This document shows, piece by piece, positions 1,615 to 57,716 of a stretch of 64,000 nucleotides of DNA; within the stretch, counting starts at the first letter, position 1; every line of letters starts with the position of its first letter. Under the pieces are notes generated by a model. The model was not told where the DNA came from and ran no database searches. It was given only the letters and a program-made list of their open reading frames with translations. Where the stretch lies: the IMG/VR virus record IMGVR_UViG_3300018475_000004. One strand, written 5' to 3'. The DNA comes from a virus (taxonomy: Duplodnaviria > Heunggongvirae > Uroviricota > Caudoviricetes). The position numbers were made by a program, and so were the translations under genes.

Positions 1615-1643
1615 TTGATTTTACTGAAAAAAAATGATATAAT
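1615..1643 (+). promoter_or_regulatory. Sigma-A-type promoter (TTGATT, 17 bp, TATAAT), a variant of the repeated cassette
   Basis: ttgattttactgaaaaaaaatgatataat. Confidence 0.6.
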
Positions 1644-1679
1644 TGTAATAAAAAGAATAATGACAAAGGAGCTTAAATA

Positions 1680-2561
1680 ATGAAATTTTATTTGCCTGAT
1701 TTCGATACTTTATTGCACTTAAATTTATCTTTGTTACAGTTACATCATTTTCATCCAGAGTATTTCCACGAAGGAATTGAATTTGGTGGTATCTATGGAA
1801 CTTTTCCAGGAGCAATTTGGAATGGAGGTCGCTTACTGTGTGGTTCGACTTCTTCTACTCGCATGAAAGAAACAATTGCTTTACTCAATGATGCTGATAT
1901 TCCTTTACGATATACTTATACTAATCCTCTCTTAGAAGAAAAGCATTTGTATGATACTTATTGTAATCTAACAATGGAATTAGCTAATAATGGAATGAAT
2001 GAAGTAATTATCAACTCTCCCATATTAGAAGAGTATCTAAGAAAAAATTATCCAGATTTCAAATATATTTTATCTACAACAAGATGTGAAAGAGATTTAG
2101 GTAAAATCAATGAAGCTACTGAACAATATGATTTAGTAGTTATTGATTATAGAGATAACTATAATTTTGATTTCCTAGATGGCATTAAACATAAAGATAA
2201 AATTGAATTACTTATAAATGCTTATTGTCATCCTAATTGTAAATTACGACAAAAGCATTATGAAACTATTGCCAAGCATCAACTTAATTTTGAAATGATG
2301 AATCCAGAAACTGATGGAGAGCTTGCGGGCGGTTGCCCCACTTACCGCAGAGGCTTCTATGATATTTTAGAATTCCCTTCTGTTATTAAGGTTGATGATT
2401 TATATGGTAAATATACTGACATGGGCTTTTCTCATTTTAAGATTGAAGGCCGCACTATGCCAATCGCGCAAGTTATGGAAAGTTATATTTATTATTTAGT
2501 CAAACCTGAATATCAAAATCAAGTTCGTCTAACTTTATTAAGTCAATGCATCAAAGGGTAA
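1680..2561 (+). CDS. Hypothetical protein (293 aa)
   Basis: AAAGGAG RBS, then ATG 1680; TAA stop. No reverse-transcriptase motifs (no YxDD), so this is not the DGR RT. Confidence 0.6.
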   Translation: MKFYLPDFDTLLHLNLSLLQLHHFHPEYFHEGIEFGGIYGTFPGAIWNGGRLLCGSTSSTRMKETIALLNDADIPLRYTYTNPLLEEKHLYDTYCNLTMELANNGMNEVIINSPILEEYLRKNYPDFKYILSTTRCERDLGKINEATEQYDLVVIDYRDNYNFDFLDGIKHKDKIELLINAYCHPNCKLRQKHYETIAKHQLNFEMMNPETDGELAGGCPTYRRGFYDILEFPSVIKVDDLYGKYTDMGFSHFKIEGRTMPIAQVMESYIYYLVKPEYQNQVRLTLLSQCIKG

Positions 2562-2611
2562 AGTTTTATTTTTCTTACTTTTTGTAAAAATATGAAAAAG
2601 GAGGAAACAAT

Positions 2612-5600
2612 ATGGCCTTATCATGGAATAGTGGTACTTGGTATTCTATTTGGGAATATGCTCCTAATGGTACAACTAAACCTTGGCAAAGAACAGGTCC
2701 TGGTACTGGATACAGTACCATTTAGCGTTATTCTGGTTCTACTGGTGACTGGGTTTGGGCAACTGCTGTTGAAGGTAGCAACCCCGAATGGATCGGATAT
2801 TGGCAAAACGGCAGCTTCGGTTATTCTGCGACTTGGTCTGGTACATGGAACTATTTCGACTGGGTTAAGAACGTAACTGAAGGTGCTGGATGGACAGGTA
2901 CTGCTTGGGCTTATTATTACTATCCAAGTTCTGGTTCTACTACTTACACTAGACAAACATATTCTAGTAGATCATCTCCTAGTTTTACACTAAGAGCATC
3001 TCCTGGTTCTAATACTATTACTTCTAATAGTTCAACAATTACTTTAACTGTTAATTATAATAATGGAAGTGCCAATGTCACTTAGAGCGGTACAAAATAT
3101 ACTAGTACTACTTATACTTTCTCTGGATGGGATGAAAGAACAAGCACTTACACTCCAAGCTCTTTAACCTCTGGTACTACCGATTATGCAGCAAGTGCAA
3201 GTCGTTCTACTACTGCTGATGTATATTATTATGCTGATTATACTGCGGGTACCGCAACTACTAAGTATACAAATAATACTAAATCTTTAGGTACTCCAAC
3301 TAAAGCGAGTACAACAACAACATATACGGTTACATTTAATCCTAATAGTGGTACAGTCTCTCCAACAACTAAGACAGCAACTCGAACTACCACATATCCT
3401 TTTTCTAGTTGGACTCCTAGTAATACAAGTATTACAATAAATTCAAGTAATGTAGCAACTTTTACCGCAACTGGTACAGTTACTGCAAATTACACTACAA
3501 GTAACGGTACTGTTGGAACAGTTACATTACCCACACCATCTAGAACAAATTATACTTTTAATGGATGGTTAGCTCCAAATGGTACAACTTATGCTGCTGG
3601 TGCTTCATATCGTCCATCGTCCACAAGTGAGACTCTAGTTGCACAATGGACATTAAATCAAATTACTTTAACTCTTGCTAATAGCGAAAATTGGACTGGT
3701 ACATATGCTCCTACTGGTGGCGGTACATTAACTCCAGGAGCAAACATTACTCTGAATCAGCCCTTAAAATCTGGTTGGCATTTTGTAAGCTGGACCAATG
3801 CTTCTGGCACAGTTTTATCTTATAATGCGTCTTATCCAACGACTGCTCCTACTTCAAGTACAACATATACTGCTAATGTTGCGAGAAATACTTACAAAGT
3901 AAGATATGACTCAAATGGCGGTAGCGGTACTATGGCTGAGTCTAACCATACATATGGAGTTGCTTCTAATCTAAGAACAAATACATTTACAAAGAATGGT
4001 GCTACATTTGTAGGTTGGGCAACTAGTTCAACTGCAACTTCTGCCGATTATACAGATGGCGCAAGTATTTCTACTTTAAACTCCACTAATGGCGGTATTA
4101 CTATTCTATACGCTGTATGGCGTGCAGCAACCAATATGTTCATTTATACTAATAATAAATGGACTCCTGCCTTAAAGTATGTTTATACTTCTAACGCTCC
4201 TGTTGTCACTCCAAAAGCAGAATTTGATACAACTTGGGCGAATACAAGAATGACATTCTCTTATTCGAATGGTAGTTGGACATCACAACATAATACTTTT
4301 ACAGTCTCTAATATTGGTAATGCTTCTGGCTCTGTTACTGTTGAAGCTTTGGTTAATGATGGAGATTATCCAGGTGTTATTTGTGTCATTAAAAATTCTA
4401 GTAATCAGACAGTAACTTCTGCTGTTACAATCGCGGCTGGTGCAAGTCAGACATTTACTTTCCAAATCTCTGGTACTCCAACTGCTGAATATACTAATGA
4501 AAATATTGGTTATGCTTTTGTTGAAGATGGCGTAGATTATATGTCTTATATCCCTGCGTATATCAATGTCGATTTACCTGAACCAGAGCCTGAGACACCA
4601 ACATATACTAATGGTTATACAGTTGCTTCTGTTAGTGGCTCTACATATACTTTTGTTGATAATGGTTCTGGATATTATGAAAGTAATAATAAAGGCGTAG
4701 ATGAATCTTACGCTTTAGCTCGTACAACTGTTACAACAGATGGCACCAAGTATGTAGTTGTTGAATATAAATGTGATAGTGAAGTTTATTTCGATTATGG
4801 TTCAATCTCTGCTATTGATACCACTTTTACTGCTTCTGCTAATCCAGAGATGAATACAGTAATTTCTCAACCGGATACTGGAGATGGATTTGCTCGTTCT
4901 ATTAAGAAAGTAAATTTCGGTAAATTAACTGCAGGAACACATACTTTTGATGTAAAATTTATTAAAGACGTTTCAGGCGCGGTTGGTGCAGATAGTATGA
5001 TATTCAAAGTTACATTTGTAGATTCTGTTCCATCTGTTCTAAATTCTAGTTGCACTTATTCTTCTGTTAGTGGCGCTTCTTATGGCTTTACTTATTCTAG
5101 TGGCTGGTATTACTCTAATAACCGTGGAATTGCAAGTAGTGCCGCTGTAGGTAAATTAACCATTGCCGCAAATGGAGTAGATCATATTTATATTGATGCT
5201 TGGCAATCTTCTCAATCTAGTGTTGACTTTGGTTTACTTTCTGTTAGTGGAGGAACTTTATCTACTTCAAATACAATCGACACTTCTAACGTTCTAGCAA
5301 GTTATCAAAATATTAGTGATACTTTAACAACTGTTGATTTAGGCGTTTTAAGTGCAGGTACTTATACTTATTATATAAAATATCGTAAAGACGCTTCTGG
5401 AAATTATTTTGATGATTGTATCCAGTTTAGAGTTCGTACTGAAACTGCTGCAATTCAAAGTCCTGGTTATAGATATGATTCAGTAACCGTTGAACCGGTA
5501 AGTGGCTCTACATATACTTTTGTATTAAATAGTGATGGATATTATGAAAGTAATAACCAGGGTGTTAATAGTTCTTACGCTTTGGCTAAAGTAACTGTTA

Positions 5601-56658: not shown

Positions 56659-56682
56659 TCAAATCTGAGGAGGACATAAAAT

Positions 56683-57654
56683 ATGGCTATTGATTTATTG
56701 GCTTTGAAGCCTCACAAGGTTTCTCGTGACCTAAGTGGTTACATTACTTATATTTATGGCGCTCCTAAGTGCGGCAAGACCACTCTTGCCGCCCAGATGG
56801 ATAAGCCTCTATTGCTGGCTTTCGAGCCTGGTTACCACGCACTGCCTGGTATCATGGCACAGGATATTACTTCTTGGGCCGAAATGAAGCAGGTTTATCG
56901 TCAGTTGAAGATGCCTGAGGTCAAGGAAATGTATAACTGTGTTATCGTTGATACTATCGATATTGCCGCTGATCGTTGTAAAAAGTATATCTGCAATCAG
57001 AATGGCATCGAAGACCTGGGTGATATGGGTTACGGCAAGGGCTGGACTAAGTTCAAGGATGAATTCAACGAAGTCTTCCGTGGACTAACTCAACTGGGTT
57101 ATGCTGTGTTCTTCATCGGACACGAAAAGCTGGAGAGTATTGATAATCCTGATGGTACTAAGACCACCAAGATTCGTCCTCAGTTGAGCAATTCTACCAA
57201 GACCGTTATCGCTGGTATGGCTGACATTTATGGTTATGCTCATCAGAAGGCCGCCGGTGAAATGTCTGTTCTAACTCTGCGTGATGGCTCTGGTATTATT
57301 GAGTGCGGCTGCCGCTTCAAGCATATGCCTGTTGAGATTACTATGAGCTATAAGAACTTGATCGATGCTCTAAATGAAGCTATCGATAAGGAAGCAGTCG
57401 AAACTGCTGGTCAGTTCGTAACCAATGAGCGCATTGTTGCTCCCGTTGAAGTTTCTTATAATTATGAGGCTCTGATGGGTGAGTTCCAGGATCTGGTTGG
57501 ACAGCTGATGAGCAAGGGCACTACCAATGGCCCCAAGATCACTGCTGTTGTTGAGAAGTATCTTGGTAAGGGCAAGAAGGTAAGTGATACCACTCCCGAG
57601 CAGGCTGAGTTTGTAAGCCTAATCGTTAGCGATATTAAGGCTGACCTGATGTAA
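56683..57654 (+). CDS. RecA-like recombination ATPase (AAA_24/Sak4-like)
   Basis: Walker A 'YGAPKCGKTT'; typical phage AAA_24 layout. Confidence 0.6.
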   Translation: MAIDLLALKPHKVSRDLSGYITYIYGAPKCGKTTLAAQMDKPLLLAFEPGYHALPGIMAQDITSWAEMKQVYRQLKMPEVKEMYNCVIVDTIDIAADRCKKYICNQNGIEDLGDMGYGKGWTKFKDEFNEVFRGLTQLGYAVFFIGHEKLESIDNPDGTKTTKIRPQLSNSTKTVIAGMADIYGYAHQKAAGEMSVLTLRDGSGIIECGCRFKHMPVEITMSYKNLIDALNEAIDKEAVETAGQFVTNERIVAPVEVSYNYEALMGEFQDLVGQLMSKGTTNGPKITAVVEKYLGKGKKVSDTTPEQAEFVSLIVSDIKADLM

Positions 57655-57663
57655 TATTTATGT

Positions 57664-57700
57664 CAAGTCGGGGCGATCCGCTCCGACTTGATTTTTTTTA
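57664..57700 (+). terminator. Terminator (caagtcgg...ccgacttg plus T-run) overlapping the -35 of the next promoter
   Basis: Seen in sequence. Confidence 0.65.
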
Positions 57701-57716
57701 TATTTTTTGGTATAAT
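57688..57716 (+). promoter_or_regulatory. Cassette-variant promoter
   Basis: ttgattttttttatattttttggtataat. Confidence 0.6.

Follow-up and report, generated by a model that had tools for sequence, protein, structure and literature searches.

Why should one promoter-like sequence recur, almost letter for letter, from one end of a phage genome segment to the other? The question is raised by a 64,000-nucleotide stretch of the Caudoviricetes record IMGVR_UViG_3300018475_000004 in IMG/VR (hereafter the window, meaning the whole stretch analysed), part of a large phage in which all the genes of the window lie on the plus strand. The initial annotation had listed about 21 copies of a promoter-leader cassette, usually fused to an upstream terminator, and had held that conservation beyond the −35 and −10 elements implies an extra constraint, such as an UP element, a phage regulator site, or recognition by the phage's own sigma factor. 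We consider it likely that each copy is a compact expression cassette read by host SigA and then probably by the phage sigma, defining units insulated by terminators.

The repetition itself is beyond doubt. The 29-mer TTGATTTTTATAAAAAAATATGATATAAT has 11 matches in the window at ≤3 mismatches, all on the plus strand, compared with none in 100 dinucleotide shuffles. A 45-nt position weight matrix (PWM) scored 13 core copies at 54.8–64.6 bits (6849, 9462, 12628, 14603, 18986, 20512, 24395, 25129, 28215, 32360, 33809, 35137 and 36106) and three looser copies (1615, 44091 and 55267) at 31–46 bits; no match to it was found on the minus strand of the window, and the top shuffle score was 11.8 bits. 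According to an independent repeat finder, too, the cassette family (14–18 copies) dominates the repeats of the window. A chance origin of the motif is excluded. Every copy is intergenic and on the coding strand, and core cassettes are spaced on average 2.4 kb apart. The earlier census was right in its total, since the window holds about 21 sigma-A-type sites, comprising 13 core copies, 4 looser copies (a hybrid at 57688 included) and 4 copies of a second subclass; one copy placed at 14604 begins at 14603. The idea of a single family held for the 13 core copies, but 49940, 51983 and 52245, together with a site at 39709 that had not been listed, form a separate subclass, and 57688 is a hybrid.

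The core copies are near-identical (n = 13), with the consensus TTGATT-TTTATAAAAAAATATGA-TATAAT-ATATAT-R. All 13 combine a TTGATT −35 element, a 17-bp spacer and TATAAT preceded by TG, and 12 of them carry TATG upstream of the −10. This TATG we take to be the Gram-positive −16 ‘TRTG’ motif that Voskuil and Chambliss reportedly described in 1998. For analysis of the family, 123 unique copies were taken from the window's relatives and extended beyond the PWM (n = 123 wherever the family is meant below). TTGATT is present in 110 and TATAAT in 119 of these. From the −35 onwards, the spacer runs through a T-tract, a TA step, an A-tract and the TRTG of the extended −10, and its variants T5ATA7, T6ATA6 and T5CA8 all retain the order of T-tract then A-tract. 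After the −10 comes the discriminator ATATAT; 7 nt after the −10 stands Y-R-Y or Y-R-R (119/123), and the next 20 nt are 85% A+G. Information reaches about 2 bits per position over the −35, A-tract, TATG, −10 and ATATAT, with a further 0.7–1.7 bits per position out to about +15, so that conservation of spacer and leader does extend far past the hexamers, as first proposed. The 35-nt block has a GC content of 6.8% amid DNA of 44% GC. The −35, described as a perfect match to consensus, in fact agrees with TTGACA at 4 of 6 positions; the −10 and TG do match perfectly. At 20 of the 21 window sites an open reading frame (ORF) starts 15–67 nt past the −10, in most cases with a Shine-Dalgarno sequence, though in DNA this densely coding an open frame often follows a randomly chosen position as well. 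In the family the median distance from −10 to start codon is 33 nt (interquartile range 28–38).

Each of these segments has a counterpart in cellular promoters. The optimal core promoter has a four-region spacer, in which a T-rich tract beside the −35 is followed by a low-signal step, another AT tract and a G/TG region, and spacer composition alone shifts promoter strength up to 600-fold (PMC12641261). A ‘start’ triplet YRY (or YRR) stands 7–8 nt past the −10, Terrabacteria favor an AT- or AG-rich discriminator, and Firmicutes an AG-rich initial transcribed region (PMC12641261); extended −10 promoters of Firmicutes usually have a weaker −35 (PMC12641261, PMC7438776). All the elements listed for this generic core promoter (Kuo et al. 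2025, PMC12641261) are present in the cassette, with the difference that in cellular genomes they are weak statistical enrichments, whereas here each copy carries one fixed sequence. Because every conserved segment, namely spacer, discriminator, start triplet and leader, matches a general housekeeping-sigma element in Firmicutes-optimal form, no extra factor is required, and the extra constraint is no longer a necessity. On its sequence, the cassette would be a promoter with each known element set at its optimum. Nor does an UP element account for the conservation. Positions −70 to −5 carry ≤0.3 bit each in the family and only the T-run at −4 to −1 reaches 0.4–0.7; with information upstream of −41 at ≤0.3 bit per position and nothing but the T-run conserved upstream of the −35, a region that holds unrelated GC-rich stems, the proposed UP element is to be set aside.

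The fusion to terminators could be followed by hairpin prediction. A strong hairpin (dG −10.6 to −22.8) was predicted to end ≤15 nt from the −35 in 10 of the 13 core copies and at 57688, with a gap of ≤2 nt in 8 of those 10; the prediction found no adjacent hairpin at 20512, 33809 and 36106. In the family, a hairpin with T-run was found at 45–56% of copies, compared with 13–29% of random controls. Stems at 14603, 18986 and 57688 reach into TTGA, and the T-tract of the promoter spacer would therefore double as the U-tract of the terminator. An overlap of terminator and −35 had been pointed out at 57688, and the stem predicted there (57663..57691) does overlap the −35. The description of these sites as sigma-A-type extended −10 promoters fused to terminators thus fits what they look like.

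Conservation of the cassette was then followed in relatives of the window. Megablast of 8 kb against GenBank phages gave no match, and the exact 33-mer was found in 66 stretches of IMG/VR huge-phage contigs, including contigs of 402, 190, 176 and 171 kb. These relatives are 64–84% identical to the window in alignable or coding DNA, and their proteins mostly ∼45–70% identical. Cassettes occupy orthologous junctions in them, where identity of the 35-nt block is 91% across 27 orthologous pairs. Alignments of the junctions show divergent coding flanks and compensatory changes in the terminator stems, with TTGATT to about +10 nearly invariant; the genes flanking orthologous junctions can differ entirely. 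A spacer-agnostic search (TTGA-N16-TGnTATAAT) recovered the same per-contig consensus in more than 20 contigs, and the AAATG variant of the 6849 junction was found in all three lineages. Such junction-specific variants indicate vertical descent under purifying selection. The lineage is one of uncultivated, widespread huge gut phages, and its host is probably a Firmicute. The exact cassette was also found in 17 stretches (L067–L083) of contigs of metagenome-assembled genomes from ruminant guts, in yak and other gut samples. The taxa given to these genomes are inconsistent (Clostridia families, Alistipes, Treponema, Succinivibrio), and the contigs are probably mis-binned phage DNA.

The cassettes are concentrated where gene content changes. 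The accessory region extends over ∼6.8–43 kb, and core cassettes lie in its first part (6.8–36.2 kb), cutting it, as the initial annotation had it, into units of 1 to ∼8 genes. In the window, cassette 24395 is followed by a 216-aa gene, a terminator and cassette 25129; two relatives (L063 and L022) have a single cassette between the same neighboring genes. The segment 33560–35180, which ends in a terminator and cassette 35137, is inserted between genes that are translationally coupled in relatives L021 and L055, and the 83-aa gene behind cassette 32360 is missing from relatives. Three indels are thereby bounded by cassettes (24395–25182, 32418–32669 and 33560–35180), seen by comparison and without an enrichment statistic, and some indels (15776–16513) are not.

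Taken together, the sites could work as follows. The upstream unit would end at an intrinsic terminator. Directly behind that would lie a near-maximal promoter of the housekeeping (sigma-A) type, and then a short leader, rich in purines, that contains a ribosome-binding site. From the onset of infection the cassettes would be fired by the host's RNA polymerase carrying host SigA; the SigA-like phage sigma, made from one of them, would probably read the same sites later. The terminators would insulate the gene units, and identical blocks of 35–60 bp may serve as homology patches where gene modules come and go. In this scheme the anatomy, position, orientation, conservation and indel pattern of the cassettes are direct observations, and promoter and terminator activity, timing and choice of sigma are what we infer from them.

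Which sigma reads the cassettes depends in part on the phage's own factor. The gene at 19053–19958 encodes a SigA/RpoD-like sigma with regions 1.2–4 and without region 1.1, as judged by Pfam, the NCBIfam RpoD model and alignment to SigA; it matches positions 75–368 of the 370-position Firmicutes RpoD model of NCBIfam. Aligned to SigA of B. subtilis and S. aureus, the protein keeps Q437, R441, E458, E585, R588 and Q589 (E. coli numbering, here and below), and has the changes W433Y, T440S and H455N lineage-wide and R584K in the window. The phage sigma is 75% identical to that of the 402-kb relative, compared with ∼55% for neighboring proteins. At least 24 metagenome contigs carry the exact protein, with a listed maximum length of ∼220 kb, and a 98%-identical homolog lies on a 275-kb contig; a search for relatives with the sigma as query returned the same three contigs and one 35% relative. 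Residue R584 of sigma reads position 5 of the −35, and R584K drew interest because this is where TTGATT departs from TTGACA. Lysine at 584 is fixed in the 120 closest homologs and limited to the window's close clade. As the cause of TTGATT, R584K was rejected: R584 is retained in the 402-kb and 176-kb relatives, whose cassettes are identical, and residue and hexamer therefore do not co-vary. A test for a class specific to the phage sigma, across the window and its relatives, found the motif to be host-type and not matched to the altered sigma residues. Moreover, cassette 18986 stands directly ahead of the sigma gene, so its first use must be by host polymerase. From these sequences, use of the cassettes by host SigA is most likely, and the phage sigma probably shares the sites; exclusive use by the phage sigma is not supported.

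Several points weigh against this reading. TTGATT is near-invariant (110/123) in place of the stronger TTGACA, which simple maximization of SigA binding fails to explain. The phage carries a SigA paralogue, and its lineage also has promoter classes whose conserved spacers differ, leaving room for class-specific recognition. The preference of host SigA is assumed from general Firmicutes rules, and conservation estimates are inflated because relatives were ascertained by the exact 33-mer. A rival explanation is that the cassettes are a middle-type class specific to the phage sigma, with host SigA mainly serving the TTGACA classes; TTGATT, the adjacent T-tract and the AT-only spacer would then favor the paralogue without region 1.1 over host SigA. 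The phage does encode a complete region 1.2–4 sigma, its lineage-wide changes W433Y, T440S and H455N lie near DNA-contact sites, and at least two more sigma-A-like classes of the lineage have other conserved spacers and a TTGACA −35. A T-tract beside the −35 tunes selectivity among extracytoplasmic function (ECF) sigmas of B. subtilis (PMC5758882), and spacer effects on initiation act via sigma region 1.1, the part missing here, according to Hook-Barnard and Hinton 2009 as cited in PMC4496709. We nevertheless hold such exclusivity to be unlikely, as the helix that reads the −35 is SigA-like (E585, R588 and Q589 kept), the 402-kb relative lacks R584K and has the same TTGATT cassettes, the sigma gene itself sits behind a cassette that host polymerase must use first, and the generic sigma-A optimum already accounts for each conserved element.

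Conservation of the spacer might alternatively reflect an operator, a phage or host protein binding the T5-AT-A5 dyad between −35 and −10 and switching all cassettes together. The commonest spacer holds a perfect 12-bp palindrome, TTTTTATAAAAA, the T6ATA6 variant is palindromic too, and ∼1.5–2 bits per position across a spacer is unusual for ordinary promoters. Yet the frequent variants T5CA8, TTATA8 and T5A7 break the dyad and retain the tracts of T then A, a pattern that fits a constraint on shape or composition better than a sequence-specific dimer site; with no candidate regulator identified, we judge an operator very unlikely. Recent spread or homogenization, by mobile cassettes or gene conversion, could also produce similarity of this kind in place of selection on each base. 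Module indels do have cassettes as borders, and the AT-only block (6.8% GC) stands in 44% GC DNA as though installed along with acquired genes. The consensus is, however, identical in lineages with ∼55% protein identity, and orthologous copies retain site-specific variants and junction-specific leaders that gene conversion would erase. Inheritance of these variants disfavors homogenization, and we give this explanation hardly any credence. A compact cassette read by host SigA, and then probably by the phage sigma, remains the preferred reading.

The cassette is one of several promoter classes in the lineage. The second subclass lies in or near the replication module and has TTGAC(A/T) with an A5-6T6 or T-rich spacer, the A-then-T tracts being in the reverse order of those of the main cassette. 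Its members are at 39709..39771 (TTGACT, T-rich spacer), 49940..49993 (TTGACA, A6T6 spacer, ahead of an NAD-dependent DNA ligase identified by Pfam), 51983..52044 (TTGACA, A5T6 spacer) and 52245..52340 (TTGACA, A5T6, TG). The subclass is kept at orthologous sites, L048:1897/3324, L021:11147 and L055:6929, the last two being orthologs of 39709. A third, dense promoter family was seen in relatives, with a copy every ∼300–1300 bp (L016:1084-5621, L043:1482-6345, L050:71-2003). It reads AAAAnCCCC-TTGACAAAyCCCnCAAAGTRTGsTATAAT, with a perfect −35, a fixed spacer that contains GC, and a conserved A-rich/CCCC upstream part; one of its copies sits after a tRNA-like 3′ end. The classes would allow a ‘spacer code’ in which the same sigma-A hexamers, with −35 and −10 consensus unchanged, carry distinct fixed spacers (T5ATA7 in the main cassette, A5T6 in the replication module, AAnCCCnCAAAG in relatives) that host SigA and the phage paralogue without region 1.1 distinguish, giving temporal control. 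We regard such a code as quite improbable.

The design itself is already known. In T4-type phages, PeSLs (promoter-early stem-loops) join a stem-loop to an early promoter; these composite cassettes keep small units of hyperplastic regions insulated and mediate the shuffling of modules (Arbiol et al. 2010, PMC2839356; Comeau et al. 2014, PMC4122927). Like them, the cassettes described here unite a terminator stem-loop, a sigma-70-type promoter and a Shine-Dalgarno sequence with start codon, occur in many repeats concentrated in an accessory (‘hyperplastic’) region (13 copies in 6.8–36.2 kb), would insulate small gene units, and border indels between related phages. They differ in belonging to another phage lineage with a Gram-positive-type promoter (TRTG, AG-rich leader); in having variable stems and an almost invariant promoter, spacer and discriminator; and in that about half of the family copies have no stem-loop. 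The consensus moreover persists at ∼55% protein identity, whereas PeSL promoters differ between phage pairs. A second precedent is the early ‘uber’ promoters of T4 (UP/−35/TGn/−10), thought to out-compete host promoters right after infection (Hinton 2010, PMC2988021). Many copies for the host sigma, excellent hexamers, TGn and additional consensus regions are common to both. T4, however, has UP elements and tuning by injected Alt through ADP-ribosylation, whereas here only a T-run is conserved upstream of the −35 and the phage has a SigA paralogue. What is notable on the sequences compared is the near-invariance of a whole core promoter across deep divergence, in a new lineage of huge phages.

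Phage SPO1 of B. subtilis encodes, in gp28, a sigma factor with its own promoter class. The same is true of gp36 of phiEco32/7-11 (PMC8948821). In both of these systems, as here, the phage sigma gene lies behind an early, host-type promoter; their sigma consensus is, however, clearly unlike that of the host, whereas here a host-type motif goes with a sigma whose DNA-reading residues are still SigA-like.

The individual sites, all on the plus strand and with hairpins by prediction, are as follows. The first core cassette, 6849..6922 (56.9 bits), preceded by a hairpin with T9 at 6806..6833 (dG −16.0), stands before an ORF that starts 45 nt past the −10. Its product, at 6923–9424, is an 833-aa protein with an MVP shoulder domain and a vault repeat (Pfam E 8e-22 and 1.5e-8) and constitutes a one-gene cassette unit. 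Cassette 9462..9513 (exact 29-mer, 61.0 bits) precedes a 186-aa ORF, and the hairpin before it (9436..9459, dG −15.3), with compensatory stem changes in orthologs, sends its T-run into the −35. A hairpin at 12603..12625 abuts cassette 12628..12672 (29-mer and PWM), after which ORF 12673–13467 is readable only with TAG as sense. At 14603..14660 (exact 29-mer, before an 82-aa ORF), the stem of hairpin 14570..14604 (dG −22.8) ends in the −35 and the T5 of the spacer would be its U-tract. Cassette 18986..19052, immediately ahead of the phage sigma gene (29-mer, PWM and ORF spacing), has a hairpin at 18957..18985 (dG −19.0) abutting the −35 with a gap of 0. The copy at 20512..20579 (29-mer), upstream of a 303-aa RNase T-type exonuclease recognized by domain match, is the first without an adjacent hairpin, and a terminator is predicted ∼90 nt upstream (20397..20421, dG −14.9).

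Cassettes 24395..24445 and 25129..25182, both found by PWM, bracket a one-gene module. The former, abutted by hairpin 24370..24394 (dG −10.6), precedes the 216-aa ORF, which comparison showed to be absent from relatives; the latter, whose −35 is entered by hairpin 25098..25130 (dG −19.9), precedes an isochorismatase-family protein (domain match). Cassette 28215..28275 (29-mer, PWM), with hairpin 28185..28214 (dG −19.6) abutting its −35, precedes an 88-aa ORF and the NAMPT unit (Pfam), and 32360..32417 (29-mer), with hairpin 32334..32358 before it (dG −18.1), the 83-aa ORF. Within the module that alignment shows to be inserted relative to L021 and L055 lies a copy with no hairpin, 33809..33870 (29-mer); 35137..35180 (PWM), behind a hairpin with T-run at 35100..35127 (dG −20.2), closes it. 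The last core copy, 36106..36164 (29-mer), also has no hairpin. Among looser copies, 1615..1679 (31.0 bits) precedes a 293-aa ORF and 44091..44164 (42.1 bits) GyrB (Pfam), with a strong predicted terminator ∼270 nt upstream of the latter (43787..43825, dG −25.4); 55267..55336 (46.4 bits) has canonical orthologs in L065, L048 and L010. The hybrid, 57688..57750, combines TTGATT with a T-rich spacer, and its overlapping hairpin has a dG of −21.3.

The accessory region encodes, besides the MVP-shoulder/vault-repeat protein and the sigma, the exonuclease, an RNA-ligase-like protein, an NAD cluster, a Thg1-like protein, SPFH proteins and metallophosphoesterases; after it comes the replication module with GyrB, GyrA, NAD-ligase, ThyA, DnaB and RecJ. 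GC content is 41–48% over the cassette-rich 6000–40000 and 33–40% in the flanks, a contrast suggesting that genes of foreign origin have been given native promoters of AT-only sequence. Spread over cassette units, the NAD-metabolism cluster (25183–31877) comprises the isochorismatase-family protein (read as a nicotinamidase), a protein with a phosphoribosyltransferase (PRTase) domain, Sir2, NAMPT, Macro and NAD synthase, and may reconstitute NAD against NAD-depleting defences. A domain of Thg1-like tRNA-His guanylyltransferase (16527–17309), the RNA-ligase-like protein (21779–23242) and an HD-domain protein (23536–24192) may form an RNA or tRNA repair set. Two SPFH/Band 7 proteins are encoded at 34151–35095 and 38057–39589.

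Other repeats were also seen. Two adjacent genes have 5′ ends that are 85% identical (17699–17766 and 18389–18456) and encode a lipoprotein-type signal peptide, MKKIFAFILALCM...LVACGG. A Cys-rich motif, W-I/Y-C-x-C-x-C-G, is repeated at 12839, 13043, 15867 and 16068; it is common to ORFs 12673–13467 and 15776–16513 and to a gene of relative L059, and the presence and position of these ORFs vary among relatives. Scans of the window for tRNAs and Rfam families found nothing, and no known RNA element therefore overlaps the cassettes. TAG is apparently sense at 2588–6793, 12673–13467, 41713–43452 and 52645–53631. Read in this way, 2588–6793 is a single repeat-rich ORF of 1401 aa, with in-frame TAGs at 2723, 3083 and 6002. 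TAG terminates just 3 of 49 long ORFs, and in each of these the frame stays open beyond it. Recoding of stop codons has been reported for gut phages (bioRxiv 10.1101/2021.08.26.457843), and the pattern is in line with it; the tRNA scan found no suppressor tRNA in the window.

These results would extend the PeSL or ‘uber early promoter’ design, known from T4-like phages with Gram-negative hosts, to uncultivated huge phages of the gut. The cassette appears to be a natural, strongly selected and fully optimized Gram-positive promoter, with spacer, discriminator, start triplet and leader fixed, and could be a portable strong promoter for Clostridia or Bacilli. If the spacer did separate host from phage sigma, this would be a new mode of temporal control. 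Finally, the cassettes mark borders of accessory modules, among them those for NAD metabolism, sigma and RNA repair, and can in this way help both in annotating huge phages and in studying how their modules are exchanged.

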